Source of the DNA: Betaproteobacteria bacterium HGW-Betaproteobacteria-4
GTDB taxonomy: Bacteria; Pseudomonadota; Gammaproteobacteria; Burkholderiales; Rhodocyclaceae
DNA length: 64,000 nt
Direction: 5' to 3'
NCBI GenBank assembly: GCA_002840785.1
Contig: PHCH01000004.1
Span: forward strand, 24,204-88,203
Both the position numbers and the translations under genes were made by a program. Positions 9,062 through 36,596 of this stretch are shown piece after piece (the stretch's first letter is position 1; each line of letters begins with the position of its first letter). A model generated the notes under the pieces. That model searched no databases, was not told the DNA's origin, and worked only from the letters and a program-made list of their open reading frames with translations.

Positions 9062-9073
9062 TAATCTCCGCGC

Positions 9074-14397: not shown

Positions 14398-14398
14398 A

Positions 14399-16671: not shown

Positions 16672-16677
16672 GCCATC

Positions 16678-16707: not shown

Positions 16708-16736
16708 AAACTATTCGTGATGTAGAATTTCAACTT

Positions 16737-17627: not shown

Positions 17628-17644
17628 TGCCGGGAATCTAATAA

Positions 17645-17818
17645 GTTGAGATTTCCCCCGGCTCTGCCGGGGCGGCAGTAGCAGTTTCAATGGAAAAACT
17701 GTGATGTCATATCCGGTGACCATGGCTGATTTGTGGGGCTTTTGACTTTGGATTGCGAATAGCCCCCTTCGAGGGGGCCGCAATCCAGAATGCCCCCGGC
17801 TATGCCGGGGGATTGTTA
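17645..17818. mobile_element. Miniature non-autonomous IS200/IS605-like palindromic element
   Basis: Near-identical hairpins CCCCGGC-TCT-GCCGGGG (17656-17672) and CCCCCGGC-TAT-GCCGGGGG (17793-17811), plus subterminal GCCCCCT-TCG-AGGGGGC (17762-17778); no transposase ORF; exact ends uncertain. Confidence 0.55.
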
Positions 17819-17932
17819 CGACATGGCAGATGCGCAGGAGCAATTTGTCGCCCGGGGACACCACTAATTGGGCTGGCCTACCGATAGTTCTGGCGAAATA
17901 AGGCGCTGACAGAACGCCTCATTTGCCCGCGA

Positions 17933-18074
17933 ATTTCCTGCCAATTAAATGTTTGGCAGGCTATCGGGGGCCTCATCAAGTCTCCCCTCCGGCGGCTATT
18001 CCCGACTTTTTTGCACTATCCATAACAATTTTTGGCAGGAAATAAAGTTGTATTCCGATTAATTAATTGGCAGG
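17933..18074. repeat. TTGGCAGG octamer array and TnsB-like boxes upstream of tnsA
   Basis: CCTGCCAA 17937-17944, TTGGCAGG 17953-17960, 18032-18039, 18067-18074; AAATAAAGTTGTA 18040-18052; reversed AAAAAAGTCG at ~18003-18012. Confidence 0.7.
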
Positions 18075-18233
18075 TAAGCGATTGATTCTAAATTAAATTA
18101 ACTGGTTTACACTGCTGAATATTTGTAGTTTCATTCGCGCCAATTCAATCAGGTGGATGGTGTGTGGTGGAGTTAGAAAGTAGATATTCAGTTCGAGCGG
18201 TTATGCGGAAGCCATGGTCCCCGAGGAGGGGCT

Positions 18234-19085
18234 ATGGGACGTAGTCGCTACAAGTGGACTGAAGCCAAAATCTGGAAATGGGTGAATGAGGGGCGAGGCC
18301 AAGGGGCTGGTGCGGGCTACTTGCCGTGGCTTCGCGTCAGCGATGTTCCATCCAAAGGGTTTTCCCATCGGATTTGGGGAGAACTGACCCACCGGGTGCA
18401 CCATCTTCTCTCACACCTGGAGTATCTGGTTTACCTCTGGTGCCTGATGCAAGGTGGCCTGTGCGATATACGCGAGGCCTACCCACTCAATCGCCAAGAT
18501 ACCCGGCGTATCGCAAAGATATTGGGCTTGGCTCATCCGCGTTACCCCGGAACCCGTATCGATGTCGTGATGACCACTGACCTGTTATTAACGCGTCCTG
18601 GTGACCCCGCGACTTACATCGCCTTGGCTGTAAAACCTTCCTCACAGTTAGCGGACCCGCGAGTTATTGAGAAATTGGCGATAGAGCGGGCCTACTGGCT
18701 TGAGCACGGAGTGACCTTCTACGTTGTCACGGAAAAGGACCTTCCCGAGGTCGTCTTGCATAACTTTGAGCGCATTCGTTTTGCCATGAATTTGGCTATG
18801 AATCCCAGTTTTACGGTTGCACGGGCGCGCAAATTACAGCATGACCTGCTGGGCCATCTCACATTGCGGCAAAGCTGCACTTACGAGGGGTTCTGCACTG
18901 AGTTTGATGGCAAGTTGGGTTTGGATACTGGCGATAGCCATTATCTCCTGACCAACATGATGGCCCATGGGGTACTGACCTTCGACATGGAGCGAGCATG
19001 GGATGTCCGGAATTCGATGAGCGGATTCCGGATTTGCCGGGATGCGCTGGATAAGTTGGCCCAAGAAGAACGGTTTTCAGATTGA
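18234..19085 (+). CDS. tnsA: Tn7-like TnsA endonuclease
   Basis: GRGQG...YLPWLRVSDVPSKG, HHLLSHLE, DIREAYPL, VMTTDLL, AVK, EKLAIERAYW: catalytic E/D/K/E positions all present. Confidence 0.93.
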   Translation: MGRSRYKWTEAKIWKWVNEGRGQGAGAGYLPWLRVSDVPSKGFSHRIWGELTHRVHHLLSHLEYLVYLWCLMQGGLCDIREAYPLNRQDTRRIAKILGLAHPRYPGTRIDVVMTTDLLLTRPGDPATYIALAVKPSSQLADPRVIEKLAIERAYWLEHGVTFYVVTEKDLPEVVLHNFERIRFAMNLAMNPSFTVARARKLQHDLLGHLTLRQSCTYEGFCTEFDGKLGLDTGDSHYLLTNMMAHGVLTFDMERAWDVRNSMSGFRICRDALDKLAQEERFSD

Positions 19086-21286: not shown

Positions 21287-21304
21287 TTTAACTGGAAGGT
21301 ATCA

Positions 21305-22921
21305 ATGAGCAAGAAACGTACAGAGATTCGACAAACCTCACGCAATATCAGAGTGGTCGATGCGATTTACATTCAATGCAAGCTCGAGTGTTATCGGGGC
21401 AACCCTCTTATCGAGGCATTGCCACCCCCTGTGTCGAAAACGAAGTGGAAGGAGCGCCTTCAGCAACAGCCTGCAATGCTGCCTGCGGAACGCGCCTTAC
21501 CGCCCGAGTTACGACTGCACTGCGCCTTGAAAATGAAAAGGGCGTTTATTGTGCAAGCTCGTCACTTGGAGATATGCGAAAAGACGGACTTGTTACTGCG
21601 TTCCGCCTACGTTGGCGTCAGTTTGGGAGAGTCCGAGCGGCGTCGGCGGGCACAAGAGTGGTATGCCTGCGTACAGAGTGGTCAGGTACCGGATTTTGGA
21701 CTTGGCGAGCAAGCTAACGGTGAGTTTTTCTCCATCATTGGCAGTAGCGGCATGGGAAAAACCCAGTCTTTGCTGCATTTTCTGGAATGGATTCCAGAGG
21801 TGATTCGGCATACGGCCAGCCAGCATTTGCAAATTCCCGTCATCTATGTCCAGTGTCCGCACAACGGTAGTACCAAGGATTTTGCCCGCAGTATCTTGCG
21901 TGCCTTTGACCGTTTGCTTGGAACTTCCTTCGATAAGGAAAACGATAGGGCGACAGAAGAAACCCTGATTGCCATCGCGGCGGCGCTAATGGACCGGTAT
22001 TTTGTTGGACTGCTGGTAATCGACGAAATCCAGAACTTGTCGCATAAGAAAAGCGGTGGACGCGAGGAGTTCATGGATTTCTTTCTGCAACTTTTCAATG
22101 TCCTTCACCTGTCGATTATCGTCATCGGCACCATGAAGGCGGCTGGGGTTCTGCAGACTACCTTTCGCCAGGCCCGCCGGGCCTCTAGCATGGGGTCAGT
22201 TGTTTGGGAACGCAGCAAGCCAAATGACAAAGGCTGGACCAGGCTGCTGAACAACCTTTGGCAGTACCAGTGGCAGGGGGAGCCCACCGAGCTAACGGAT
22301 GAATTGGCTGATGTGCTCTACGACGAGACGCAGGGAATTACAGCGCTGCTCGTCCGCTTGCTGATTCTTGTTCAACATCGGGCCATTGCGCTTGGTATTG
22401 CGGAACTCACGCCTAAGCTTGTTCGCAAGGTTGCGTCTGACAATTTGGTCTTGTTGCGTCCGATGCTCGCAGCGCTGCGTTCCGGTAATCCGGCTCGAAT
22501 TGCCAAGTACGACGATTTTGTGATTCCTGAGCTAGATGAGTTCGCGGAGATTTCAGGGGCCTTCCCTCGTGAATCGTTTTCTGCAACGGAGAGTGCCGAA
22601 GGTGCCGAGGCCATCAAGGAAGATACGAGGCGGACCGTCCTCTCGATGCTTCTGAGTTTGGGATTGTCAGAACAGGTTGCCGAATTCCATTTAAAGGCCG
22701 TGCTTGATGTCACTCCTGAGGCCACCCCTTTGGAAGTCATGAATGAGGTCTTGGCACGCACTAAAGGGAAATCCGCCCGCAAATCCACCGAGTCTCGCAG
22801 CAAGAAAAAGAGTGAGGGGGCTGCAGAACTTCCCAATGGTTACGACGAACTGCGGGATGCAGGTTGGCTGCCACCTGAAGGTGGCCTGGGGGCGACGGAC
22901 GAACCGGGTGACGCCGACTGA
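21305..22921 (+). CDS. tnsC: Tn7-like TnsC AAA+ ATPase
   Basis: YRGNPLIEALPP, Walker A GSSGMGKT, Walker B LLVIDEIQNL, RQARRASSMG. Confidence 0.93.
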   Translation: MSKKRTEIRQTSRNIRVVDAIYIQCKLECYRGNPLIEALPPPVSKTKWKERLQQQPAMLPAERALPPELRLHCALKMKRAFIVQARHLEICEKTDLLLRSAYVGVSLGESERRRRAQEWYACVQSGQVPDFGLGEQANGEFFSIIGSSGMGKTQSLLHFLEWIPEVIRHTASQHLQIPVIYVQCPHNGSTKDFARSILRAFDRLLGTSFDKENDRATEETLIAIAAALMDRYFVGLLVIDEIQNLSHKKSGGREEFMDFFLQLFNVLHLSIIVIGTMKAAGVLQTTFRQARRASSMGSVVWERSKPNDKGWTRLLNNLWQYQWQGEPTELTDELADVLYDETQGITALLVRLLILVQHRAIALGIAELTPKLVRKVASDNLVLLRPMLAALRSGNPARIAKYDDFVIPELDEFAEISGAFPRESFSATESAEGAEAIKEDTRRTVLSMLLSLGLSEQVAEFHLKAVLDVTPEATPLEVMNEVLARTKGKSARKSTESRSKKKSEGAAELPNGYDELRDAGWLPPEGGLGATDEPGDAD

Positions 22922-22922
22922 A

Positions 22923-24746
22923 ATGCCGTGGGGAATAACGGATACACCGCGTCCATACCGGGATGAACTGCATTTCGGTTATTTCGGACGTCTGCAGACC
23001 TATTGGCTTACACCAACAGTCAATGATTTGGCCCGGCATTTACGCGGTGGAACAAAGGGGCATGCCTCAAGCGATTTGCTGGGGCTTTGCGATGACCTCG
23101 TACATTCTCTGGCCGAGGCGGGAATTGATGTGGCCCAACTAATGTGGATGCACACCCTGTTGCCGTACTACCTCTCGTTCCAGTCAAGCGAAGTGCGGAC
23201 CAAGGTGGTGGCGGACCTCGAAATGGGTAATTTGACGGGGCTGCACTTTCGTATGGGTATTGGTTCAAGCAGCGTTAAACATCCGCAGGTTTTTCGATAT
23301 TGCCCAGCATGTTGGCGTGCTGACCTACTCCAGCTAGGGGAGGTGTATATCCGGCGCCTTTTTCAGCTACCCGGTGTCTTCGTGTGTCCGGAACATGATG
23401 AATTGCTGCGCGATACCGTAGTCCCCTATCGACCGTTGGCCAGTCGTGCCTATTGGAATTTCACCCCCCCAGATGCCACGAAAAACTGTCCCTTTGTGCC
23501 GGCTTCAACTGACGAGGTGAGTTTGGCGCGGTTGTTGGCCCTGGATTCTCGACGCTTGTTGCTCCAGGGGATTTCGGAACATCCGCGTGTTTCGTATCTG
23601 GCTGCGGATTACCAGCGGGCGCTACAACACTTGGGCTTGGCTTCGAGGAATGTCCATCCTGGCGAACTCGAGTCCATGTTTCTCAAACAATATCCCATGC
23701 CATTTCTTCAAAAACTGGGGCTGCCCATCGAGCCGGGGCGTGAAGGTAACTGGTTACGCTGTTTCGTACGGAAGACAAATAGGCGTTTTCATCCGCTCCA
23801 GCACATTTTGTTTCGTCGCTTTGTGGAGAGACATCTTGGTATTGATTGCTGGACATGGATGGAGGCCGAGCGTTGGCCCTGCTTGTCGCCAATGCAGTCG
23901 CACCCCGGGCCAGTAGCCGTGACTATGATGAATCTGCACTTCAACGCTGCGCGCGATGCATGGGACGGCATCTTTGCCTGTGCCTGTGGTTTTCGCTACA
24001 GCGCGGGCGGCGATGGCTTTCCGTCGGTATCCAGCCTGCGCTTGAACCGGGTGATTGCCCATTCACCACATCTACATCAACGAGTGGCGGAGTTGGCAAA
24101 GGCGGGGTGCTCGGCCGGTGCGATAGCCAGTCAATTGCAATTGCACCGGAAAACTGTCCAGCAATGGCTGAGTGCGGATGATAGGCAAAAGGCACCGAGA
24201 ACCCGCCTAGACCTGACGTCCGAGCGGGAGGCCTGGCTGGGCCTGGTCAAGCTGAATCCGCAAAGTACGTTGAAGCAGTTGAGAACATTGGCCCCGGCAT
24301 TGTTTTCTCGTTTGTATGCGCATGACGCGTTATGGCTGAAGTCCGTCCCATTACAACGGTATCTGCATCGAACGAAAATTCGTCAAGACTATTGGCAAAG
24401 CCGTGACGAGCTACTGGCCAAACAAGTGAGAACCCTGGACGAAGAGATTCGCCGACGCATGCCAGCCGTTCGCGTCACCATCAGTCGAATCGGACGTGAG
24501 TTGGGGGTGCTCAATAATTTTCGGAAAAGGCTCGCGCGGCTACCGGCGGTGGCCGAAGTGCTTGCCTCGTCTATTGAAACTGTCGAGGCATTCCAGCTCC
24601 GGCGTCTCCAGCGGGCGCTTGAGCAATCCCCTGCTGGGGTTAGCCGACGAACCTTGATGCAGGCGGCCGGATTGCGTCGTCAGAAAACGCGCCCCGCTGT
24701 CATGGAGACCATCGACAGGCTGTTCTCCGGTGGAGACCAATCATGA
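22923..24746 (+). CDS. tnsD: TnsD/TniQ target selector (start revised to ATG 22923, 607 aa)
   Basis: PYRDEL; HTLLPYY; TniQ Zn finger FRYCPACW...LPGVFVCPEH; HPLQHIL; WPCLSP...FACACGFRY; long C-terminal region typical of sequence-specific TnsD. Confidence 0.88.
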   Translation: MPWGITDTPRPYRDELHFGYFGRLQTYWLTPTVNDLARHLRGGTKGHASSDLLGLCDDLVHSLAEAGIDVAQLMWMHTLLPYYLSFQSSEVRTKVVADLEMGNLTGLHFRMGIGSSSVKHPQVFRYCPACWRADLLQLGEVYIRRLFQLPGVFVCPEHDELLRDTVVPYRPLASRAYWNFTPPDATKNCPFVPASTDEVSLARLLALDSRRLLLQGISEHPRVSYLAADYQRALQHLGLASRNVHPGELESMFLKQYPMPFLQKLGLPIEPGREGNWLRCFVRKTNRRFHPLQHILFRRFVERHLGIDCWTWMEAERWPCLSPMQSHPGPVAVTMMNLHFNAARDAWDGIFACACGFRYSAGGDGFPSVSSLRLNRVIAHSPHLHQRVAELAKAGCSAGAIASQLQLHRKTVQQWLSADDRQKAPRTRLDLTSEREAWLGLVKLNPQSTLKQLRTLAPALFSRLYAHDALWLKSVPLQRYLHRTKIRQDYWQSRDELLAKQVRTLDEEIRRRMPAVRVTISRIGRELGVLNNFRKRLARLPAVAEVLASSIETVEAFQLRRLQRALEQSPAGVSRRTLMQAAGLRRQKTRPAVMETIDRLFSGGDQS

Positions 24747-25507
24747 AAGCTCCAGGTATCGCATGGTTCGACGGGGTGTTTCAGGATGAGCTCGGGCGCT
24801 GGGTCTTGGATGCGGTGGCGAAGGAAAATGGAAGGCTGGAGCATCGGCGAGTACCCTTTCAGGAGTCTGCTGGAATGGATATGACCAGCCTAGACCAGTG
24901 GTCGCAGATGCGAACGGAAACGTTCTTTGAGGAAGCCAGCATCTTCCTTGGCCACGGACAGCGGCTTATGGATGCACGTCCGCTTATTCGCAAACTCTGG
25001 CCGGGTTTGCCTGTCAGCGATAGGCACGCGGTTTTCCGGTTCGATGTCGACGAACGAGTGTATCTGCTGCCGGCGCTGTTTCTTATCGGACGCCTGTTTC
25101 TGTCGGTACGTTCAGTTGCCAAGTACCTTCTGCAACCAGGGATGTTCGAGTCCTTTATCGACCCGGCGCCCGTTGTGGGGGATGGGGAGGTGCATATAAG
25201 GCTTCCTCCCCATATTTCGGCAAATCAATGTTCCGAGGGGCTGGCGCGTGTCATGGCGTGGCTTGCTGTCGACCGAAGCGCAGAGCGAGCGTGGCGGAGC
25301 GTCTGGTTTAAGGCGATGTCTGGCCGTTTAGATTTGGATTTGCCGGAGGTAACACTCCATGGTCGACTCGGCGGGGTAGAGGTAGATGGAGTGCGCTTGG
25401 TCACTTGGTCACGCGAGACGACCGCAAATACTTGTTTGCCGAGCATCCTGAGGGTTACCAGCAGGCGCGGCACCCAAAAGATATTTAAACGTGGCGGCAG
25501 TATTTAG
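24743..25507 (+). CDS. Fifth tns-operon gene, possibly a short TnsE-like protein
   Basis: 254 aa; ATGA overlap with tnsD; YLLPALFLIGRLF loosely resembles a TnsE N-terminal segment; about half the length of TnsE. Confidence 0.45.
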   Translation: MKAPGIAWFDGVFQDELGRWVLDAVAKENGRLEHRRVPFQESAGMDMTSLDQWSQMRTETFFEEASIFLGHGQRLMDARPLIRKLWPGLPVSDRHAVFRFDVDERVYLLPALFLIGRLFLSVRSVAKYLLQPGMFESFIDPAPVVGDGEVHIRLPPHISANQCSEGLARVMAWLAVDRSAERAWRSVWFKAMSGRLDLDLPEVTLHGRLGGVEVDGVRLVTWSRETTANTCLPSILRVTSRRGTQKIFKRGGSI

Positions 25508-25595
25508 AGACGCCTCCCGAGTGATTGCCTTGTCTTCAAACAGCCATGTTGCCGAGCAAGAAGGCTCGGCAACAGCGTTCAAACCAGGAGGAATG

Positions 25596-25955
25596 ATGAG
25601 CGACGAGTCCACTTTGCCAACAACCGTACCCGATGATTTCCCACGTGGTGGCCCGATTGCATCAATTGCCGGAGCACAGCCAAAACTGGCAGCGAGACTT
25701 ATCGATGGAAAATATGTCGTGGGTTGGACGCCCGCAGAGTTACTGGAACGATATGAAAATTGCGAGGACTTGGCTACGCAACTAGCTGCTTACTGCACCC
25801 GGAAAGCTCTTGCGAATCCAGGGTGGTCCCAAGAGTTCAATCTCCTGCGAGCTGCTCGAGGGATGTCCGAGAAAGTAATGAATGACCTATGGGATGTTAC
25901 TGAGGCTGAGCAAGCCTGGGTGATGGAGCGCGTCAAACTAATACTGGGGTGGTAA
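25596..25955 (+). CDS. Hypothetical protein with a HipA-like SIAGAQPKL motif (119 aa)
   Basis: GGAGG SD at 25587-25591; PDDFPR...SIAGAQPKL...RYENCEDLATQL. Confidence 0.7.
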   Translation: MSDESTLPTTVPDDFPRGGPIASIAGAQPKLAARLIDGKYVVGWTPAELLERYENCEDLATQLAAYCTRKALANPGWSQEFNLLRAARGMSEKVMNDLWDVTEAEQAWVMERVKLILGW

Positions 25956-26314
25956 AACATTGCATTCCACCCGGTACTTGGATTAATGAGATTCGGCAGC
26001 AGACGACCCAAAGCTGCCGTAGCGGTTTCCAGATAGCGGTCAGTCAGCCAAACCTAGGCATTTCAAACCGGACTGCCACAAAGCAGCCAGTGGTGACCTC
26101 GCCCTACCGGCCATGAACTGACATTTAGGATGTCTCCGGAAAACAGTCGTTGGTAGATTTCCTCTACCCGTATTATTCAGATTTATCTGAGCCCCAAAAA
26201 TGGAGTCTCCTTGCCGCGCAATTGATTCCGCGTGCATAATCGCCAAAACTATATTCCTTCCTACCTGGACCCGGCGACGGTTCCGCTCAAAACCTATTAG
26301 TTGACACGACTACA

Positions 26315-27037
26315 ATGCCCTTTTCGCAAGAAGTAAAAGACCTCGTCGCGTATCGAGCTGCTTACGTTTGCTCAAATCCAGACTGTCTTCGGCTCACCGC
26401 CGGGCCTTCTCTAGCCAGTTTGCGTTTGAAAGTAAAGATAGGCGAAGCTGCACATATCGTGGGAGAAAAGCTGCTGTCCGCGCGCCATCAACCTCTTGGA
26501 GATGCAGCACTAAACGACATTGCAAATGCCTTGTGGCTTTGTGCCAGTTGCCACACTGAAATTGACAAAAACAGCGGCATAGACTTTCCGACACCCCTCT
26601 TAAAGCAATGGAAAGCGGACATCGAGGCGCGAATCTCCTCAATCCTGAAAACGCACCAGAGCCCACTTCCACTTTACGAGCGCAGCAGCTCAAATTCAAC
26701 AATTGCACAAAATGTTGCGGACATAATCGGAAATCATGGGGCATTCTTCCAGCAGCTTGCATATGAAAACCCAAGTGCGGTACTTGACTCTGTAAAGATA
26801 GTGAGAATGAAGCTTGACCGCCAACACCGACAGGTAAGTGGTGACACACGCCTTAGGTCAATTGTTAAAGCGCTTCATGATGCCTGCCGCGAATACATGA
26901 ATGAGAACTCCGTTGATTGCTCATTTTGGCAAAATTACTTGACCGTGCTGAGAGCCAGAGCAGGAGTGCAATTGAACTCGCTAAAGCGAGAGTATGGAAT
27001 CCAAGTCCCATCAAGCATAAGCCCGATGTTGCCGTAG
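26315..27037 (+). CDS. HNH endonuclease fused to a helical C-terminal domain
   Basis: CSNPDC...GEAAHI...NALWLCASCHTEID Zn-HNH signature; C-terminus resembles DUF6650-type helical domains (recalled, unverified). Confidence 0.8.
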   Translation: MPFSQEVKDLVAYRAAYVCSNPDCLRLTAGPSLASLRLKVKIGEAAHIVGEKLLSARHQPLGDAALNDIANALWLCASCHTEIDKNSGIDFPTPLLKQWKADIEARISSILKTHQSPLPLYERSSSNSTIAQNVADIIGNHGAFFQQLAYENPSAVLDSVKIVRMKLDRQHRQVSGDTRLRSIVKALHDACREYMNENSVDCSFWQNYLTVLRARAGVQLNSLKREYGIQVPSSISPMLP

Positions 27038-27187
27038 CACTTGCAACACTCTTGACGGCGGCTTGGCTCGTCGGTGTCGCCGTTACAGTGAAGTAATCCA
27101 CCGCTCCTGAAATGTTCCAGCGTGTCAGTGGAACGCGCCATCAAATCTAGAGGGGCAACATTTGATGAACAAAGTGTTTTGTATGCT

Positions 27188-27215
27188 CAGCCCCTAAGCC
27201 AGGGCTTAGGGGCTG
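27188..27215. terminator. Perfect 13-bp inverted repeat between convergent genes
   Basis: CAGCCCCTAAGCC-AG-GGCTTAGGGGCTG; no U-tract, so the terminator role is uncertain. Confidence 0.45.
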
Positions 27216-27298
27216 GCACTCCTAAAGAAATCGCTACTCGAGTACAGACGCTCTTTGTTCTTACTCGGCGACATCTATTAGAGGATTAAGCACAGGGC

Positions 27299-27760
27299 TT
27301 ACTCCTCTTCTCCCTCGTCTTCAGGTTGGTCGCCTGCAGCGTCAAAGACTTCGATAATGTCATCGTCAGTCATTTGCAAAATCGTTGCCTCGGGGTGGTC
27401 AATATCTTCAAGATAGCTCCTAAACCCGTTACCAATTGGTCCGCTGGGTAAATCTTGCCAATCAAGGTTAAGGCGTTTAGTTGCAATTTGAATCCACGAA
27501 GCAGCTTTGTCGGCGCGAAGCATTGCGTACTGGTCAGCACTTATGCGCATGAGTATCCAGCCCAACTGTGCAAGCTCCTCAGCAAGGTCGCCAAGAAACG
27601 GTTCAGTCAGATATGAGCGCCTTCCAGCCCTCCTCAAGGTAACGCTTGAGAAACGAAAGCGGGAAATTTCCCGTGCCGGAACATTTTCCTCAGCCATAAG
27701 CTGAGACATGATGATGAGTAGCCGAGCGGTTGCAGCGGCACTTCTAAGCTTGGAAGCCAT
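27299..27760 (-). CDS. Hypothetical protein with acidic tail (153 aa)
   Basis: GAGG SD, strong upstream promoter, ends EDEGEEE. Confidence 0.75.
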   Translation of the reverse strand: MASKLRSAAATARLLIIMSQLMAEENVPAREISRFRFSSVTLRRAGRRSYLTEPFLGDLAEELAQLGWILMRISADQYAMLRADKAASWIQIATKRLNLDWQDLPSGPIGNGFRSYLEDIDHPEATILQMTDDDIIEVFDAAGDQPEDEGEEE

Positions 27761-27844
27761 GATGTCGTCCTCATTGGAATCGGTTGTACTTCAAATAGCC
27801 TGATGCCGACTTCCAGGTAATGACGGCATTGAACAGGCAAATAG

Positions 27845-27873
27845 ACTATAGCTTTGTTTTACCAATAACTCAA
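27845..27873 (-). promoter_or_regulatory. Sigma70 promoter for the 153-aa gene
   Basis: TTGAGT (27873-27868), 17 bp, TATAGT (27850-27845), with an AT-rich upstream tract. Confidence 0.65.
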
Positions 27874-28272
27874 TAAATTGTGTAGTTGATAGTATTTTTT
27901 TGTAGTTAGTATTGTATTTTTGAAGTTTGCGGTGTTCCTTGGTGCAGAAGCCAGTGGCATCTTGTCCCCTTTTTCGTGGTGAACATGTACCCATGTGTAG
28001 CCGTTCCAGATGCGTGAGTGCCGACCAATCAGACGGCCCAACCCAAAAAGGTCATCAAGCAGATGCATTACCGTTTGCTATCCGATTCAAAGCTGAGGCC
28101 AAAATGGCCGGTTGGGGAATGAAAGGATGACTGAAATTGGCTGGGTCAAGGCAGTGAGGACGTCAAATTGCTAGCCGAATACCGGACGCTCAGGCACATC
28201 AGCTGAAGCCACAACTATCAAACTGAATGACCACCTCGACCGGCGGCTCATGGCCGATAGGCGACTGAGCGA

Positions 28273-28409
28273 GCTGTCTCGCAAACGCTCGGTTTCGAGA
28301 CAGCCACAGCACACCACCAAGCGCACCATCCCGAGGGGCTTTTTGTGCCTCAAAACTTTGTCTCATTTGATTTGTCTCAGGCGCGATGCTTTTAATGAGT
28401 TTTGAGACA
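28273..28409. repeat. TGTCTCR operator-like array
   Basis: GCTGTCTCG..CGAGACAGC inverted repeat (28273-28304), TGTCTCA 28359-28365 and 28373-28379, TGAGACA 28403-28409. Confidence 0.7.
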
Positions 28410-28422
28410 GAAGGAGATTGCA

Positions 28423-28602
28423 ATGACCCCTCAAGAGAAAGTTATTGAAGACATCGCCAAACGTCATCTGCTGGTCGATACACTGGAAACAAGGAACAAC
28501 GATAGCCAGGATTTCTATGAGGTCGCTGTCTGGTGCATCAAGGCAGCTCTTGACGAAGCTTTTGAGGCTGGTAAGAACGCTTCTGCCATTGACGCGACCT
28601 AG
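28423..28602 (+). CDS. DUF6900-family small protein (59 aa)
   Basis: AAGGAG SD; TLETRNNDSQDFYEVAVWCIKAALDEAFEAG. Confidence 0.8.
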   Translation: MTPQEKVIEDIAKRHLLVDTLETRNNDSQDFYEVAVWCIKAALDEAFEAGKNASAIDAT

Positions 28603-28755
28603 GAGTACGACAGTGCTTCCCGGCTACCTAATACCGAACTCGTATAAAAGAACGGAGAGGCTGCTCAAGGCAACTCGCGCCAATGGCTGCGTCGTTGGCC
28701 AGGCAGCCCCTCCGCTTCAAAACTCCGAATTGTTAAAGAGCCGTTCTGAGCAATC

Positions 28756-29631
28756 TCAGGCGTCAAGTGAGTTCATGGTCACGATGCTCTGGAACTGCTC
28801 GAAGATATCTAGGCGCTGCTGCGCGATGAACCGACTGACCGCTTCATTTGCCAGTAACTTGCTCAGGTAGCCTTGGGCAACGACTAGATTCAATACGTCG
28901 TCGGCGTAGCTATCCTCTATGAGCTTGTATTGGCCTTGGAGGTTTTGCATTTCCCGCTCCATGCGGTCCATCTGTTCAGGTGTCACACCACGCATATTCG
29001 GCTTGCTGCCCTCCACCAAAAGCTCCACTGACGTGGTGGCCAGTAGGGCCTCGGCGTAATTCACGGTGAGACTGTTGGCCGTGAGCATCAGGTCTATGCA
29101 TTCGATTTGCCGCGTTGCCTTCATCTTGCGCAACAGGCGTGAGATTTCCGGGGAAAACTGTCGGTCTTTAAGCATCGCTGCTGCCTCTGGGCAGATGCCA
29201 TCAAGGAGTTTCAGTTTCTTCAACAGACTGCTGAAATCGATGTTGAGGGTCTGGGCTAATCTCTCCCGGGAAACGCCCTTGGCAACGGCTTCCTGCAGCA
29301 TCCGTGTTTCCTGGATGGTTGATAGCCGATTGATGCGCGTGTTGTAGGTGTAGGCTTCATCGTCAGACGCCAGCAAACAAGGGGCTGTCGCTGCACCTAA
29401 TTGGTGGAGTGCCTGGAGACGGACATGGCCATCCAATAACAGATATTGCGCTTCAGTGGCATCGGCCAGGGTGACCGATAGTGGTTCAATGATACCGACG
29501 CTCTGGATAGAACTCACTATCTGCCGGAATTTCACGGTGCCCTGCAGCACAGGAAGTCGTCGCGACGGCAGAAGTTTATCCAGGGGAACCTGCATCACCT
29601 CTGGAACAAAAGCTTGCGGTACGTTGCTCAT
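28756..29631 (-). CDS. ParB/RepB-like protein 2
   Basis: IQSVGIIEPL...LLLDGHVRLQAL ParB N-domain; RepB-like C-terminal region; ATGA overlap with the upstream gene. Confidence 0.85.
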   Translation of the reverse strand: MSNVPQAFVPEVMQVPLDKLLPSRRLPVLQGTVKFRQIVSSIQSVGIIEPLSVTLADATEAQYLLLDGHVRLQALHQLGAATAPCLLASDDEAYTYNTRINRLSTIQETRMLQEAVAKGVSRERLAQTLNIDFSSLLKKLKLLDGICPEAAAMLKDRQFSPEISRLLRKMKATRQIECIDLMLTANSLTVNYAEALLATTSVELLVEGSKPNMRGVTPEQMDRMEREMQNLQGQYKLIEDSYADDVLNLVVAQGYLSKLLANEAVSRFIAQQRLDIFEQFQSIVTMNSLDA

Positions 29632-30530
29632 CGACGCACCCGGTCAGGCCAGACGCGTTCCGCCAGATACATCGGCATTACGTCGAGTTGCTCGGCTCGT
29701 AAGAGATTCACGAAATGCTCGTTGCCCAGGAGTTGGCGTAACGCGCTGGTTACAAAAAGTAGGCGCTTCTGGGTCAGGTCAGCTTTGCGCAAAATGAGCT
29801 TCTTACGTTCGACCTCTTTCTCGTAGACTCGCACCAAACTTGCCGAGCTGACGTCAGCGCTCCCACGTTTGGTACGGTGATAGGCAGATGGACCCAAGCT
29901 GCGTCGTCGTTCGACAATACGACGTACTTGGGACAGCTTGTTGCCCCTTAATGCGCCGGACTCATAGGCTTCCTGCATGGCAGTCTGTAGTGCTGCATCA
30001 TCTTGACCGGCGCTAACGATGTCGAGTGCCGTATTGAGCGGAACCAGCCCCCTCTCTACCGCCATGAGCAGCCGCTCTTCCCCGCAACTCAGTAGACTCA
30101 GGATGCCGGATATATAGCGTGCTGAGAGGGAGGTTTTGCGGCCAATATCCGCTGGACTGTAGCCCCGTTCTGCGAGTTGGCGAATGCTCGCCAGGATTTC
30201 CAGGGGGCGGTACTGACGTCGGGCAATGTTTTCAACAAGGCTCATGATGTAGGCGTCCTCGTTGCTGACATCCATGACCAAGGCAGGAATATGGGACTCA
30301 CCCAGAATCCGGAATGCGGTCAGGCGTCCTTCTCCACACACCAGGGCAAAGGCAGGAAGCTTGTCTTCCGACGGCCGCGGGGTGACGACGATGGGCTTTT
30401 TGAGGCCGACGCTGCGAATGCTTTCGACGATGCTCTCAAATCCGCGCTGGTTGCGGTCGCGTGGATTGAGCACCTGGATACGGTCGACAGGCACTTGCCT
30501 GACCTGGCTGGTATCGAACTCTGGATTCAT
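29628..30530 (-). CDS. ParB/RepB-like protein 1
   Basis: LNPRDRN...IRSVGLKKPIVV...LVCGEGRL...SLVENIARR. Confidence 0.87.
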   Translation of the reverse strand: MNPEFDTSQVRQVPVDRIQVLNPRDRNQRGFESIVESIRSVGLKKPIVVTPRPSEDKLPAFALVCGEGRLTAFRILGESHIPALVMDVSNEDAYIMSLVENIARRQYRPLEILASIRQLAERGYSPADIGRKTSLSARYISGILSLLSCGEERLLMAVERGLVPLNTALDIVSAGQDDAALQTAMQEAYESGALRGNKLSQVRRIVERRRSLGPSAYHRTKRGSADVSSASLVRVYEKEVERKKLILRKADLTQKRLLFVTSALRQLLGNEHFVNLLRAEQLDVMPMYLAERVWPDRVRR

Positions 30531-32095
30531 GCGGCTCTCCGAATACGAAAGCGTTCTGCCATCCCGTATAAGTAATCCAGTGTTTCAAAGCGATAGCTGT
30601 CGAGTTCGAAGGCGTTCGATTCGGCCAGGCAAATCCGCTCCCGCCCGAAATCAAGGCGGGGGAGCAGGTAGTAGTCCAGCGCAGAACGGTTGTTCGGGTC
30701 CAGTCGGACAGCCACGGTGATATCCGGGCACAGGCTGGTATCGAAACGGATTTTCCAGCGCCGGCCACCTGCTTCCGTGGTGTGGCAACGCGCCAGCACA
30801 ATGGAAATACTGAATTCGTCGTTGATATCGAGGATGCCAGTCGCCGGGTCGCGGACGACAAGGCCGCCAAGCTCACCAATTCGCTGTTCCGTCTGGCTGA
30901 CTATCTCTGGATACATTTCCCTGAGGTAACGGTTTATTTCCAGGTAGCCGTAGTCACGGTCTGGCGTAAAACCCACCATCTGGTAAGCCCTGATGAGGCT
31001 GCCAAAGCGGTGGGCATAGACTGAAGTCGACGGCATGCCTTCGGTTTCGTTAATGACCAGCCCCGAAAGAAAGCCCCGGCTCTGATACAAGTCGCGTAAT
31101 CGTTCGAGCAAATCGTTATCGGAATACCGACGAAAGCGCGCCCGCATGATGCCCTGTGCGGTGTAGAACAGGGCCGAGGGCACAATCGCCTCAAATGCCC
31201 CTTCCTTGCGTAGCCACATGTCCGGTGTGTTGGTCACCCGGGTTTTCTTGAGCTTGAAGGAAATCCGGTTATAGATGTTGTTGCCGATATATTTTTCGTT
31301 GGTTAGCACCTCGCTCACGGTTGACCGGGTCCAGGCCCGGTCGAGGTCTGTGCGAATGCCCGTACTATTGAGACGTGCGGCAATATGGAATTCGGACAAT
31401 CCTTCCTCGATGAACCAGCGATAAATATTGTTGACCGTGCGGACCTCATCTTCCGGTCCCGGCACCAGTATTACTCGGTCAGTCTGCAGGCTTTTGTGCT
31501 CCCCCCGGGCCAGTTCTGCCTTGTGGTGGCCATGTTGGTCGACAAGTACGCGGCGCAAGCCGTATCCGGCCGGGCCACCTTGCCGATATCCCAGTTCGAT
31601 GAGCCGGCATTGCCCAGCGAAGACTTTGGCGGAAAGCTCCCGGCTGTACTCGCCGGCCATGGCCCGCTTGACCCCTTTGACGATGGTCGAGACGGGGGAA
31701 CCATCGTTCTCGAATTGCTCGGCGACATAGCTGACGAGGATGTTTTTCCGTTTGCAGATGTACTCGTAGTACGCCGATTCATCAGCATCCTGGAAACGGC
31801 CCCAGCGGCTGACGTCATACACTAGGATTAGGTTGAACTCTGCCTTGCCGGACTCAACATCGGCAATCAACTGCTGGAGAGCATGCCGACCATCGATACG
31901 AAGGCCGCTCTTGCCTTCGTCTGCATAGGTTTTGACGATTTCGATGCCGCGGCGCTGGGCGTACTCGCGGATTTTGTCCGCCTGGTTCTCGGTCGAGTAT
32001 TGTTGGTGCTCAGTCGACATCCGGACGTACTCTGCGGCCCGAAACAATACTGTCGGCCCCGCGCTATTGTTTTGCGGCAATTGGTGCTTACCCAT
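30527..32095 (-). CDS. Large serine recombinase
   Basis: AAEYVRMSTEHQQYS (catalytic Ser), YADEGKSG, DVSRWGRF, recombinase domain GGPAGYG...LTNEKYIG. Confidence 0.92.
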   Translation of the reverse strand: MGKHQLPQNNSAGPTVLFRAAEYVRMSTEHQQYSTENQADKIREYAQRRGIEIVKTYADEGKSGLRIDGRHALQQLIADVESGKAEFNLILVYDVSRWGRFQDADESAYYEYICKRKNILVSYVAEQFENDGSPVSTIVKGVKRAMAGEYSRELSAKVFAGQCRLIELGYRQGGPAGYGLRRVLVDQHGHHKAELARGEHKSLQTDRVILVPGPEDEVRTVNNIYRWFIEEGLSEFHIAARLNSTGIRTDLDRAWTRSTVSEVLTNEKYIGNNIYNRISFKLKKTRVTNTPDMWLRKEGAFEAIVPSALFYTAQGIMRARFRRYSDNDLLERLRDLYQSRGFLSGLVINETEGMPSTSVYAHRFGSLIRAYQMVGFTPDRDYGYLEINRYLREMYPEIVSQTEQRIGELGGLVVRDPATGILDINDEFSISIVLARCHTTEAGGRRWKIRFDTSLCPDITVAVRLDPNNRSALDYYLLPRLDFGRERICLAESNAFELDSYRFETLDYLYGMAERFRIRRAA

Positions 32096-32220
32096 GGTGT
32101 TCTCCGCCCTCCATAGACAGGTTCTGATTGAACCTGACTCGTCGACAAACCACTTAAAACAGAAGCTTGTCGCAAGCTAGCAAGAAAACATTCGCTTGGA
32201 TATGTAGGCGACAGTTGCAA

Positions 32221-32577
32221 TTAACCATCCGCTGGAAACGCAGACAGGACGCGGATTTCGACCAGCCACGCGTGCCCTTTTGCAATTCCGTCGCTGTCTA
32301 TACGTGTCAGAAGGTAGCGGCCAGGGGGCAATTGACCAATGTTGATGGTTTCCGGCTGCTCAGAAAAAACAGGGCAATTCGTGGGGAGCGTATTCCCTGG
32401 TGCTGGGGCTGGTGTGGGCAGGAGGCTATAGAACTCAGAGTCGGAATGACGTTGTGTCACCTTGGTGCGCCGGCGGCGCTCACGTTGACACTCCGTTTTT
32501 GAGCAATAACGTTGTTCGCGTGTTTGTGGGCAGGGTTTGAAATATTGGCCACACGCCAGACATTTCCTTGAAGGCAT
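32221..32577 (-). CDS. Small Zn-finger hypothetical protein, possibly internally deleted (118 aa)
   Basis: GGAG SD; MPSRKCLACGQYFKP...RYCSKTECQRERRRR. Confidence 0.55.
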   Translation of the reverse strand: MPSRKCLACGQYFKPCPQTREQRYCSKTECQRERRRRTKVTQRHSDSEFYSLLPTPAPAPGNTLPTNCPVFSEQPETINIGQLPPGRYLLTRIDSDGIAKGHAWLVEIRVLSAFPADG

Positions 32578-32712
32578 CGAGAGCTCCGTGCATGTAACAA
32601 AGCACGAATTCACAGGATATTTAGGAAACAGTAGATACGAAGCTGCCGGGCAATACCAATGGATGCATTCGGGCAGTGCCGCTCAGTTGATTGCTTCAGT
32701 AGGCGCGGCTCG

Positions 32713-33171
32713 TTAAATGCCCAGCTTTGTTTTTACTTTGCTCCAAGCGCCAACATGGCTCGGGGGTATCGACGTTTTCTTTATTGATACCACACCGGGT
32801 TTATCGTAATCCTTGCCGTGCTTTTGCCGATAACGTTGGTTATACGCTTCGTGGTCCGGAAGAACGAGCGCCCGAAGCTCAGCGCTTGTGAGCACGTGAT
32901 ATAGCGGAGACTGCTCTTCATCTTCCGGCAGAAATACCAATACCCAGATATCTTCGCTGTTTTCCGGAAGCTGCCCGCCAAGAACCCATTTCTGTTGCGA
33001 TGTGGTTTTGACCTCCAGCGAAGCCGCGACCTCGCCGTACACAGCGATTACGTCAGCTTTCTTTGCGTTGCCATAAGTTACGGCTGCCGTCATTCCACGC
33101 CGAAGCAACTCGCCGGCGACTAAGAACTCGCCGGCGAGTCCTAATGAATGTTTTCGTGATTGATTAGACAT
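32713..33171 (-). CDS. Stand-alone PD-(D/E)XK nuclease-fold protein
   Basis: AGEFLVAGELLRRG...NAKKADVIA...LEVKTT. Confidence 0.75.
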   Translation of the reverse strand: MSNQSRKHSLGLAGEFLVAGELLRRGMTAAVTYGNAKKADVIAVYGEVAASLEVKTTSQQKWVLGGQLPENSEDIWVLVFLPEDEEQSPLYHVLTSAELRALVLPDHEAYNQRYRQKHGKDYDKPGVVSIKKTSIPPSHVGAWSKVKTKLGI

Positions 33172-33253
33172 GGAAGGGTTGGTTTCCGTCGATGAACTTC
33201 CGTTGCAGCATGTTGCCAGATGTCATCAGAGTTCAACAACAGGCGGATGCACC

Positions 33254-33466
33254 ATGCAAAGTTTGACTTTCAAAATCACAGGTCTCAAAGACGAGACCTG
33301 CGTGCGTACCTTGGCTAATGCCATTCAAGACCTTCCAAATATCGGGCATATCGAGATTTCACTGGAAAAAGGAGAAGCCAATATCGAGCACGGCAGATTC
33401 GTTAGTTCGGATGACATTACTCAGGCCATTGTTGATGCCGGATTCGAAGCTGAATGCTTGGGTTGA
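33254..33466 (+). CDS. HMA (CopZ-like) domain protein with a degenerate metal motif (70 aa)
   Basis: Ferredoxin-like pattern FKITGLKDETCVRTL...AIVDAGFEA; DxxC instead of CxxC. Confidence 0.75.
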   Translation: MQSLTFKITGLKDETCVRTLANAIQDLPNIGHIEISLEKGEANIEHGRFVSSDDITQAIVDAGFEAECLG

Positions 33467-33559
33467 ATGCATTCCAATTTTCGTCGGCTTGAAATGGGAT
33501 TGTTGTAGTGGTTTAGCCAATCGCATTATCCTGCCCTGATTCATCTCTGAAAGCCCCCC

Positions 33560-34018
33560 ATGCGCGCAATCGGCAATTTTCTGTGGTTCATCCTCGGCGG
33601 GGTCCTGATGGGATTGGGCTGGTGGCTTGTCGGCCTCCTATGCTTTCTTACCATCGTCGGCATTCCCTGGGGTAAGGCCTGCTTTGTAATTGGCCAGTTC
33701 ACCTTCTTCCCGTTTGGCAAGGAAGCCATCAGTCGCAAGGAATTGTCGAATCAAGGTGACATTGGGACGGGCGCCATGGGGCTGGTGGGGAACATTCTCT
33801 GGTTCATCTTCGCCGGCATCTGGCTGGCCATTGGTCATGTTCTGTCGGCACTTGCCTGCGCCATCACCATCATAGGCATCCCGTTTGCCATCCAGCACCT
33901 TAAACTAGCCGGTATTGCCTTGGCCCCCATCGGTAAAGCGATTGTGACCAAGGAGGTCGCCGAGGCCGCACGCCGCCGAAATGCTGAAATTTCGGTTTCG
34001 CAGCTGCGAGGCGGCTAA
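33560..34018 (+). CDS. yccF: YccF-domain inner membrane protein
   Basis: Duplicated GNxLWFIxxG...TIxGIP DUF307 repeats. Confidence 0.9.
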   Translation: MRAIGNFLWFILGGVLMGLGWWLVGLLCFLTIVGIPWGKACFVIGQFTFFPFGKEAISRKELSNQGDIGTGAMGLVGNILWFIFAGIWLAIGHVLSALACAITIIGIPFAIQHLKLAGIALAPIGKAIVTKEVAEAARRRNAEISVSQLRGG

Positions 34019-34054
34019 CCATCATCCCCAATGCACCCCTTGTAAGAGCCACTG

Positions 34055-34993
34055 ATGCCTGTCTCGCTTGACGGAAAACTTGTAGTCGCCATCTCTTCCA
34101 GAGCCCTGTTTAATTTCGAGGACGAAAACCAGGTCTTTGATGACCGTAACGATATTCCGTACATGAAACTGCAGCTCGAGCGACTCGATATCCCGGCAGA
34201 ACTGGGTGTGGCATTTCCCCTCATCAAGAAGCTCCTGGCATTCAACACAGAGGCGTTGCAGCGAGTGGAGGTGGCCATCCTGTCCCGAAATGACCCTGTC
34301 AGTGGGCTTCGCGTCCTGGCCTCGTCAAAACACCATGGCCTTGCGTTGGAGCGTGCAATCTTTACGCGCGGCGCACCGCCGCATCGTTACCTCAAACCAC
34401 TCAATGCCAATCTGTTTCTGTCGGCGAATGGTGAGGATGTCCGTGATGCCTTGAATCACGAATTTCCCGCTGCACAGGTTTACCCGCAGTCGGTCAGCGA
34501 TGCATCGCGCAATCCAAGCGAGATTCGCATCGCCTTCGACGGCGACTCGGTCCTGTTCAGCGATGAGGCTGAGCGCATTTTTCATCTGGGCAACTTGGAC
34601 AAGTTTCAGGCGCATGAGATAGAGAAGGCCAAGATTCCCTTGCCGCCTGGGCCCTTCAAACCATTCTTGAGCGCACTTCAAGGACTACAACGTGCTGGCA
34701 ATGATGTGCCCATGCGTGTCCGCACCGCATTGGTGACCGCCCGTAGCGCGCCAGCCCATGAGCGGGCAATTCGGACCTTGATGTCTTGGGACATTGCCGT
34801 AGATGAGGCGATGTTCTTGGGAGGCCTCGACAAAGGCCCCTTCCTGAATGAGTTCGAGCCGGATTTTTTCTTCGATGACCAGGCCAGGCATTGCGAGTCG
34901 GCGGCGCTGGTCGGTCCTGCCGGACAGGTACTTTATGGGGTCAAAAATATCCAAAACATGCTGGAATCTGAAGTTGCACCAGCAACATCTTAA
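34055..34993 (+). CDS. 5'-nucleotidase (PF06189-type)
   Basis: LVVAISSRALF, RIAFDGDSVLF, ALVTARSAPAHER, FFDDQ. Confidence 0.9.
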   Translation: MPVSLDGKLVVAISSRALFNFEDENQVFDDRNDIPYMKLQLERLDIPAELGVAFPLIKKLLAFNTEALQRVEVAILSRNDPVSGLRVLASSKHHGLALERAIFTRGAPPHRYLKPLNANLFLSANGEDVRDALNHEFPAAQVYPQSVSDASRNPSEIRIAFDGDSVLFSDEAERIFHLGNLDKFQAHEIEKAKIPLPPGPFKPFLSALQGLQRAGNDVPMRVRTALVTARSAPAHERAIRTLMSWDIAVDEAMFLGGLDKGPFLNEFEPDFFFDDQARHCESAALVGPAGQVLYGVKNIQNMLESEVAPATS

Positions 34994-35043
34994 TATCAGG
35001 TGACTTGCCTTCAATCTGCACTGTCGTGACAAGCAGACTAGCC

Positions 35044-35160
35044 ATCTTCTCACTATCTTCTCAGAAACTTGGAAGATAAGGCTGTCTTACAACATTCTTC
35101 CAAGTAAGTTAGAAGTTAGCCTATTTTGCAAGCTATCTTCTATCTTCCGACGTTATCCTC
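35044..35160. repeat. Imperfect 24-bp inverted repeat plus TATCTTC array
   Basis: 35053-35076 vs 35096-35119 match 19/24 as reverse complement (core ACTTGGAAGA/TCTTCCAAGT perfect); TATCTTC at 35054, 35134, 35141 and reversed at 35072. Confidence 0.75.
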
Positions 35161-35391
35161 GAGGTTGCGGGCAAGGTTTGAAAAACCGGTCGCGGGACAG
35201 ACAATTTTCGAGTGAGAGTGACGAACTTGTGCATGTGGCAAGGCAGGAATTCACGGCTTATTCCGTGTGAACTTGGGGCGGGCTTATTGGCAGCCTGAGC
35301 CTTGAAAAATCGGTGTGTGGTGCCTAAGGTGAAGTTGTCGATTCAATAACCTTCCGCTATCGCTAATAAGTGCAGTTGGCGAGGAGGTAAT

Positions 35392-35531
35392 GACTTTATT
35401 CTTGATGCTTGAGCAAGAAGGGTGATGGGCACCCCAAAAATGCATGACTTTATTTTGACGCCTTCATCGCAGGCGTTGCTAAGTGCTTGAATCGCGGCGC
35501 ACTCAAGTTACGACTTTATTTTCGCTACCCA
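35392..35531 (-). repeat. Tn7-like transposon end (left-end architecture) with three TnsB boxes
   Basis: GACTTTATT at 35392-35400, 35446-35454, 35512-35520; reads TGGGTAGCGAA-AATAAAGTC from 35531, the same 11-bp offset as the Tn7 end TGTGGGCGGAC-AATAAAGTC. Confidence 0.75.
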
Positions 35532-35555
35532 GCTAGTGTCCAGAGCGGCGCTACG

Positions 35556-36596
35556 CTAGAACAATTCGACTTCGCCTTTGGCGATTTCCTTGATGGCCAC
35601 GTCGCCTGAGGCGACCAGCTTTTCGTAGCAATCGACCCGGTTTCGACCATTGCGCTTGGCGAAATAGAGCGCCTCATCGGCGCGGTCGATGACGTCGGTT
35701 GGGGTGTCGTTCGGCATCAGGGCGCTGAAACCGATGCTGACGGTGATTTGCCCGACCCGGCTGAACACCTGTTTTTCGACATTGGCCCGGAAACGTTCGA
35801 GCGTCGCAATGGCGAACTGTTCTTCGGTTGGCTGGAGCAGGGCGATGAATTCCTCGCCGCCAAAACGGAATAGCTGGTCGTCGAAGCGGAAGGATTGCCG
35901 CATTTCCTGAGCCATCAGGATCAACACTTCATCGCCGATCAGGTGGCCGAAATTGTCGTTGACCTGCTTGAAGTGGTCGATGTCGCAGACAGCCAGCCAG
36001 TGGCTGCTGCCGGGGGTGCCGCGCCGCCGGCTTTCCGGGCCGCCCAGCATCTCGTCGCTGGCTGCCTTGCCGAGCAGTTCAAACAGGTGTTTGTCGAAGG
36101 TCTTGCGGCTGGCCAGGCCGGTCAGCGTATCGGCCTCACCGTAATCGAGCAGCGAAATGTGGTTGCCGAAATATTCGATCAGGCCCATCAGGGTGACCCG
36201 ATGGTCGGCCGAGAACTCGTCCGAAAGGGTGAGTTCGATCAAGTAGACCGGTTCGTCGAGACGGATGACTGGAAAAACGATGCGATGCGTGCCGTCGTCG
36301 AGAAAGTCGATGACTGGCGAGAGTTCCTTGCGACAGCGTTTGAGCAGAGGGTCGCGCTCAATCGGATGGCAGTAGTGGTGGTCGGGCAGGTAGGCGTTGC
36401 GCAGGAACTGGCCATTCGGGCCGTAGCCGGCACAGGCAAAAACCATCGCTTTCTTGTTGCCGGTGTAGCAGCGGTAGATGACCAGGTGCTGCGGGTGAAA
36501 AAGGTCGAGCAGGGTATCAACCATGGCCGAATTGATCTCGGTGCGGTCGCGGCGTGCCGAGATCTGGACAACATGGCTGATCAGTTCAAGCATCAA
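35556..36596 (-). CDS. Diguanylate cyclase (N-terminal sensory domain + GGDEF)
   Basis: DTLTGLASR, DIDHFKQVNDNFGHLIGD, RFDD I-site five residues before GGEEF. Confidence 0.92.
   Translation of the reverse strand: MMLELISHVVQISARRDRTEINSAMVDTLLDLFHPQHLVIYRCYTGNKKAMVFACAGYGPNGQFLRNAYLPDHHYCHPIERDPLLKRCRKELSPVIDFLDDGTHRIVFPVIRLDEPVYLIELTLSDEFSADHRVTLMGLIEYFGNHISLLDYGEADTLTGLASRKTFDKHLFELLGKAASDEMLGGPESRRRGTPGSSHWLAVCDIDHFKQVNDNFGHLIGDEVLILMAQEMRQSFRFDDQLFRFGGEEFIALLQPTEEQFAIATLERFRANVEKQVFSRVGQITVSIGFSALMPNDTPTDVIDRADEALYFAKRNGRNRVDCYEKLVASGDVAIKEIAKGEVELF

Follow-up and report, generated by a model that had tools for sequence, protein, structure and literature searches.

A 38.9-kb Tn7-like transposon with anti-phage defense genes, inserted beside the 3' end of amiC, its probable attachment site

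What kind of element ends close to the stop codon of a diguanylate cyclase gene in this 64-kb stretch of DNA, the whole of which is called the window here, and which gene guides it there? An intact 38.9-kb Tn7-like transposon, with anti-phage defense genes as cargo, has its left end at the flagged sequence; both ends, the target-site duplication, the empty site and the tns genes are seen directly. The initial annotation had suggested that the TnsD of this element reads the 3' end of the GGDEF gene for the diguanylate cyclase, and had named as its alternative a true target gene at the other end. The alternative is the better reading, in that the end with closely packed sites abuts amiC. From sequence comparison and the analogy with Tn7, the attachment site is likely to be the 3' end of amiC, with the GGDEF gene a bystander that lies downstream.

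The left end is marked by three exact copies of the box AATAAAGTC, the only ones in the 64 kb, all of which are found on the minus strand (35392-35400, 35446-35454 and 35512-35520). This count compares with 0.19 expected by chance, and none of 100 shuffles reached three, which bears out the Tn7-like end with three spaced boxes that had been annotated. Read inward from 35531, the end begins TGGGTAGCGAAAATAAAGTCGT..., and the boxes begin 12, 78 and 132 nt from the TGGG terminus, the start of the outermost box being 11 nt after the first base. The terminus at 35531 is indeed TGG and not TGT, as had been remarked. Immediately to the right of 35531 the GC content changes from ~0.52 to ~0.61. Since the tns genes read towards 35531, the flagged end is by convention the left, tns-distal end, and its three spaced sites agree with this assignment. 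A whole-window search for inverted repeats gave nothing useful, and neither tRNA genes nor Rfam families were found in the 64-kb window. In an activated-sludge metagenome (run X12), a low-depth contig is ~98.5% identical to window 35250-35512, and this match to the left-end region indicates that related elements occur outside groundwater.

The other end had been predicted to lie to the left of the window as GCTAG, then TG, with a box 11 nt in. It is found on the same contig (L016), ~3.4 kb before the window begins, where the sequence runs amiC...atcaGCTAG and then TGGGTGACCTAAATAAAGTC; the junction is also written as GCTAG followed by TGGGTGACC, or in longer form as ...ggcaccatcaGCTAG followed by TGGGTGACCTAAATAAAGTCACTACCTTACAAATAAAGTCCTGAAGCCCAGGAATAAAGTCGTAAC. 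In this right end, three close-packed plus-strand boxes lie 12, 32 and 53 nt from the terminus. The flanking gene, which reads towards the element, is the cell-wall amidase gene amiC (AMIN plus Amidase_3, 448 aa), and the adjoining copy of GCTAG contains the amiC stop codon TAG as positions 3-5 of the duplication. At the left end, GCTAG at 35532-35536 lies short of the GGDEF stop codon (35556-35558), and the GGDEF open reading frame has the tail IAKGEVELF, all as annotated. The flanks of the element are thus amiC and the GGDEF gene, with glmS at neither end, so that this is not a case of glmS homing.

An unoccupied form of the locus is present in the MAG GCA_018828785.1 (L041) and on a groundwater contig (L042), both with an AmiC 98% identical to that of the window genome, and consists of the amiC stop codon, 19 bp and the GGDEF stop codon. 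When the window flanks are joined with a single GCTAG, the rebuilt junction matches this empty site with 0 mismatches in 135 nt. GCTAG, which occurs at both junctions of the element and once in the empty site, is therefore the 5-bp target-site duplication that had been supposed. Rebuilding the empty site also fixes the length of the whole element at 38,895 bp, from a right terminus at window coordinate -3363, outside the window, to the left terminus at 35531. Because the empty site is found in a relative whose AmiC is 98% identical and whose flanks are 100% identical over 135 nt, the insertion in the window genome is recent. Among public contigs aligned to the junction, those of run X5 have the empty form, and the occupied form is seen in run X1 at a depth of 63; run X5 also has a loose end, with amiC 3' sequence to the left of 35530.

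Beyond the element, the GGDEF gene belongs to a host context of ribF-ileS-lspA-fkpB-ispH. Downstream of ispH, the window from ~42400 to 52000 holds genes for type IV pilus minor pilins and PilY1, clustered together (L001 gene table), and has low GC (~0.50 vs 0.61) and a strong positive GC skew; this stretch may represent another horizontally acquired or fast-evolving region. The features of the window are collected in Table 1.

Table 1. Positions of the transposon, its genes and its flanks in window coordinates
Feature	Position	Strand	Basis or remark
Transposon, in-window part	1..35531	+	right end on same contig (L016), empty-site reconstruction
Cargo between right end and tnsA	1..17627	-	PADLOC, Pfam, L016 gene table
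Druantia type I, DruE (partial in window)	1-2893	-	L016 gene table
Druantia type I, DruD	2886-3956	-	PADLOC/Pfam
Druantia type I, DruC	3953-5830	-	PADLOC/Pfam
Druantia type I, DruB	5830-7458	-	PADLOC/Pfam
Druantia type I, DruA	7491-8699	-	PADLOC/Pfam
Wadjet type III, JetD	9074-10078	-	PADLOC/Pfam
Wadjet type III, JetC	10075-14397	-	PADLOC/Pfam
Wadjet type III, presumed JetB	14399-15271	-	PADLOC/Pfam
Wadjet type III, JetA	15127-16671	-	PADLOC/Pfam
WYL regulator	16737-17627	+	PADLOC/Pfam
umuC remnant, last ~95 bp	17803..17901	+	blastn and alignment to L004, L012, L015
Decayed inner junction	18001..18051	.	pairwise alignment, conservation in relatives
tnsA	18234..19085	+	Pfam Tn7_TnsA-like_N E 7e-14, TnsA_C
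tnsB, 734 aa	19082..21286	+	phmmer to Tn7 TnsB 7pik E 3.8e-36, residues 120-730
tnsC, AAA+ regulator	21305..22921	+	Pfam TniB and AAA_22, E about 2e-19
tnsD, 607 aa from ATG at 22923	22923..24746	+	Pfam TnsD E 6e-50, TniQ E 2e-16
orf254	24743..25507	+	gene tables of relatives
Cargo between orf254 and left end	25491..35053	.	Pfam/PADLOC
HNH-type effector-like gene	26315-27037		
Two ParB/RepB-like genes	28756-30530	-	
Large serine recombinase, 522 aa, CcrB-like N-terminal region	30527-32095	-	
HMA	33170-33466		
YccF	33560-34018		
5'-nucleotidase	34055-34993		
Left end with three spaced TnsB-type boxes AATAAAGTC	35380..35531	-	motif count, layout shared with Aromatoleum left end (L005)
Left-end copy of 5-bp target-site duplication GCTAG	35532..35536	.	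both junctions and empty site
Native 19-bp spacer, amiC stop to GGDEF stop	35537..35555	.	identical in empty sites L041, L042
GGDEF diguanylate cyclase gene, 345 aa, host gene convergent with amiC	35556..36593	-	Pfam GGDEF E 2.8e-34, translation, host context

The transposition genes had been presumed to lie off the window. That premise fails, as tnsA-B-C-D are found inside it at 18234-24746. The tnsB product has no Pfam match and was identified by its similarity to Tn7 TnsB, whereas the tnsD product, whose start was placed from homologue lengths and alignment, also matches Tn7 TnsD (8glu, E 2.9e-20). The next gene, orf254 (254 aa), starts on the tnsD stop codon and directly follows tnsD in all relatives seen (L004, L005, L012-15, L043-49 and L050/51). 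It has no match in Pfam, NCBIfam or PHROG, and its single-sequence AlphaFold model (pLDDT 36) is too poor to use. A tnsE gene is not recognizable in the element, and orf254 could either belong to the core as its fifth gene or encode a second target selector in place of TnsE. No second tns set or fragment is present in the window, in the 6 kb to its left, or in the related metagenome locus L034. The tns operon does not lie directly inside the right end: 21.6 kb separate tnsA from the right terminus of the window element and 4.8 kb in another metagenome element, L081, and in L034 the right end is followed by 11.6 kb of cargo without a tns gene. In Dechloromonas sp. A34 (CP102486.1; L004 4960-5330), a duplicated tnsA 5' fragment and its upstream region are found just before the intact tnsA, which suggests recombination between related elements.

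Position alone cannot decide between amiC and the GGDEF gene as the target, because both coding ends are within reach of the insertion point. Tn7-like families vary in the side that bears the attachment site, but it is the end whose sites overlap or are packed that lies nearest to this site (PMC11406308). In the window element, the packed end faces amiC and the spaced-site end faces the GGDEF gene. A metagenome scan for the packed-end pattern led to L034 and L038, in which TGGGCGACCTAAATAAAGTC comes immediately after the stop codon TAA of another amiC allele (...ARLAALG*). The contig L081 begins with a fourth amiC allele (...PKAKLALLG*, stop TAA), then TGGGTGACCTAAATATAGTC, and links amiC, the right end and tnsABCD on one contig, with a TnsD 70% identical to that of the window. 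These three further occupied alleles come from two metagenomes. In four alleles, therefore, the packed end directly follows the amiC stop codon (as TAA/TGGG in L034, L038 and L081), and a comparison of them points to site- and orientation-specific insertion beside one conserved gene. The right-end boxes lie at 12, 32 and 53 nt in four elements and the left-end boxes at 12, 78 and 132 nt in two, and all six of the ends read start with TGGG, consistently, as a trait of the clade.

The second left end is that of Aromatoleum toluclasticum (L005), whose TnsD is 58% identical to that of the window and whose end shows the same layout. It lies 135 bp upstream of ribF, without a GGDEF gene, and the 5 bp that flank it are ACTGA, with a stop triplet in the same register as in GCTAG. 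The expectation that relatives with a close TnsD insert next to a GGDEF 3' end is thus contradicted by this locus. A profile scan of genome contigs with the TnsD alignment returned only the Aromatoleum locus and distant TnsDs (28-30% identity), and a partial 562-aa protein, used as a query to extend the Aromatoleum locus leftward, gave no matches. Within the sequence reached, left ends were found in none of L015, L043-L049 and L050. When viral contigs were scanned for the packed-end pattern and for TnsD, they yielded chance matches in AT-rich phages or nothing. On an AT-rich metagenome contig (L039, 4140-4257, minus strand), TGGG is followed by three AATAAAGT(C/T)GTCC boxes that adjoin an AAA_lid_14 gene and an ISL3 transposase; an unrelated Tn7-like element whose TnsB sites are similar may have its packed end here.

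That TnsD reads the 3' end of the GGDEF gene, with insertion at a fixed distance past its stop codon and the left end proximal, is hardly likely in the light of these loci. The geometry is symmetric, since the last ~36 coding nt of the GGDEF gene also lie ~23-58 bp from the center of the duplication, the attachment side is known to vary (PMC11406308), and a GGDEF gene could also adjoin the left ends of L034, L038 and L081. Nevertheless, it is the spaced-site end and not the packed end that faces the GGDEF gene, and no such gene adjoins the left end in Aromatoleum. Furthermore, in a relative with a 96% identical AmiC two genes are found between amiC and the GGDEF gene, and in D. agitata chrA lies downstream of amiC and the GGDEF gene is absent there. 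Because it is not a stable neighbor, while the junction with the amiC stop codon is exact in four alleles, the GGDEF gene would make a poorly conserved target, and the original proposal for it is not supported.

The proposal that TnsD recognizes amiC draws on position, orientation and analogy. In Tn7, a 36-bp TnsD site in the end of glmS suffices, and insertion occurs ~25 bp away, whatever sequence stands there (PMC2918618). Between the occupied amiC alleles, identity is 45% over the 20 nt that adjoin the insertion point, and the segment from +23 to +58 nt from the duplication center, which encodes the invariant RQYFI(K/R)HPPGPK, is 81-83% identical; this pattern of a variable insertion point and a conserved segment matches that of Tn7. 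Against the amiC reading, the insertion falls on the stop codon and not ~20 bp past it as in Tn7, and the terminus is TGG where TGT is usual. The element has inserted, with duplication of GCTAG, into the 19-bp gap between the convergent amiC and GGDEF genes. In the mechanism that we propose, by analogy with Tn7, TnsD would bind the conserved 3' coding part of amiC (the codons for RQYFIKHPPGPK, ~23-58 bp from the insertion center) and then recruit TnsC, after which TnsAB would join the element at a fixed distance, with the packed-site right end next to amiC. As the duplicated 5 bp contain the amiC stop codon, amiC stays intact, and the GGDEF gene would be merely what lies downstream of amiC in the window genome.

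It might also be that neither coding end is read, and that the target is the short gap between convergent genes, the local DNA structure, or a choice made by another protein such as that encoded by orf254. The conservation of orf254 next to tnsD in all relatives is compatible with this idea, as is the insertion on the stop codon, nearer to the gene than in Tn7. However, the position is exact although the sequence at the insertion point is only 45% identical between occupied alleles, the downstream side differs between the window and Aromatoleum, and the element encodes a full-length TnsD whose N-terminal region is Tn7-like. We consider this about as unlikely as a GGDEF target.

Recognition of amiC also has to be weighed against a history without any site specificity, in which the element entered the locus beside amiC once, long ago, and has since been passed on vertically and diverged along with its hosts. 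The bacteria with occupied loci are all related and of Rhodocyclales type, and TnsD and amiC both diverge between these loci, as such a history would have it. Yet the empty site, with its identical flanks, is found in a relative with 98% AmiC identity, most relatives are unoccupied at amiC, and the cargo is wholly different between occupied loci; we judge such a history improbable. The occupied loci could nonetheless in part share ancestry rather than stem from independent insertions. Within a single assembly, GCA_017973855.1 (L017, L021), an occupied amiC locus is found on contig JAEMOG010000102 and a divergent, unoccupied amiC-SGNH-acyltransferase-GGDEF locus, with a 96% identical AmiC, on JAEMOG010000190; this MAG bin probably mixes two strains.

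The cargo of the window element encompasses two defense systems on the right-end side of tnsA. Druantia type I is complete (DruA-E), with the cargo block running on ~2.6 kb to the left of the window, and it is accompanied by Wadjet type III. On the other side of the tns genes, the two ParB/RepB-like genes and the large serine recombinase (28756-32095) are found in the same order in the relative L015, and could form a nested integrative element or a stabilization module. The region to the left of tnsA is variable in every relative, where it holds umuDC, IS21, Druantia, NACHT or restriction-type genes; in particular, L004, L012 and L015 carry a whole umuDC at the position of the umuC remnant in the window.

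Between this remnant and tnsA lies the decayed inner junction. A relic left-terminal site on the minus strand, with its terminus at 18022, reads TGGATAGTGCAAAAAAGTCG against TGGGTAGCGAAAATAAAGTCG in the true left terminus (17/21 matches), and 10 bp beyond it a relic right-type site, TGGCAGGAAATAAAGTTGT, occupies 18033-18051 on the plus strand. The relic right-type box is kept in L004, L012, L015, L043 and L005. These back-to-back relic sites upstream of tnsA, in an element with only one tns set, suggest that two tandem elements became fused after their inner ends had decayed and that the composite now moves on its outer ends. Such a fusion would account for the 21.6 kb, filled with defense cargo, that separate tnsA from the right end. 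Against it, the case rests on two decayed sites, and their spacing is 10 bp in place of the 5 bp expected from two insertions at one attachment site. Because the duplication is intact and the empty site exact, the composite evidently moved as a single unit.

The same region contains four copies of TTGGCAGG within 17934-18074 (at 17937 on the minus strand and at 17953, 18032 and 18067 on the plus strand), and none elsewhere in the 64 kb. Two of the copies together make up the palindrome CCTGCCAATTAAATGTTTGGCAGG, and the motif is conserved in L004, L012 and L015; the repeats may be an operator of the tns operon or half-sites of decayed TnsB sites. A right end just upstream of tnsA (~18030), made up of the TTGGCAGG repeats and one box, with the 3' end of umuC as the attachment site, was also considered, prompted by the umuDC genes at that place in L004, L012 and L015. 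It was rejected because the true packed end and the GCTAG duplication adjoin amiC and because L043, L044 and L081 carry other cargo at that place.

On balance, we lean towards a more general proposal, in which a Rhodocyclales TnsD clade (Dechloromonas/Azonexaceae-like, and perhaps that of Aromatoleum) homes to the last codons of amiC, with the duplication exactly on the stop codon, and travels as fused double elements with internal tns genes, orf254 possibly serving as a fifth core component or second target selector. If TnsD does read amiC, the 3' end of this gene would be an additional, apparently undescribed safe-harbor site for the target selectors of the Tn7 family, and the locus would offer a TnsD paired in nature with its att sequence, the empty site being precisely defined. 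Boundary finders that expect tnsA at the end will miscall such elements of this clade, in which the tns genes can lie many kb from the right end. The island is mobile, and its 39 kb move Druantia and Wadjet defense systems between groundwater and wastewater betaproteobacteria. The understanding of Tn7-like transposition as such is unchanged by the window element.

The novelty that had been suspected for the attachment site holds as far as the named genes go. In the literature searched, the att genes named for Tn7-like elements are glmS, tRNA genes, parE and comM (PMC11406308, PMC10293859), and amiC is not among them. Neither does TnsD appear together with N-acetylmuramoyl-L-alanine amidase in that literature, a result that does not prove unreported status, and one supplement to a survey of 6,549 transposons contains no amidase or amiC term. 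In elements that use tRNA genes, parE, or comM via TnsF, a diverged selector likewise directs insertion to another conserved gene (PMC11406308, PMC10293859), but amiC is not one of their named att genes.

In many respects, the window element mirrors Tn7 itself. The two share the gene set and order tnsA-B-C-D, with TnsB and the N-terminal region of TnsD detectably homologous, a 5-bp duplication, one packed end and another with three spaced sites, and orientation-specific insertion at the 3' end of a conserved housekeeping gene that is left intact (PMC2918618, PMC11406308). However, the target gene is amiC in the window element and glmS in Tn7, and insertion falls on the stop codon, whereas in Tn7 it occurs ~20 bp past it (the right end lying ~20-25 bp beyond the stop codon of glmS). 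Three sites with a 20-21 bp period make up the packed end, in contrast to the four overlapping sites of Tn7, and the termini are TGG where those of Tn7 are TGT (5'-TGT...ACA-3'), a terminus that is not treated here as defining for the wider Tn7-like family. Unlike Tn7, the window element lacks a recognizable tnsE and has orf254 after tnsD instead, and in its clade tnsA lies 4.8-21.6 kb from the right end.

Tandem and nested arrays of Tn7-like elements have multiple left and right ends that arise from adjacent or internal insertions (PMC8649781). The back-to-back relic left-type and right-type sites inside the window element resemble such arrays, but decay has left a single site of each inner end, there is one tns set, and the composite has evidently moved as a unit. 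The element has tnsA and tnsB, TnsC and a TniQ/TnsD selector, and inverted ~20-bp TnsB-type repeats at both ends. Its genes, the structure of its ends, the 5-bp duplication and an insertion that is orientation-specific and adjoins a conserved gene place it in the Tn7 family, and amiC is probably a new att gene for this known group of Tn7-like transposons.
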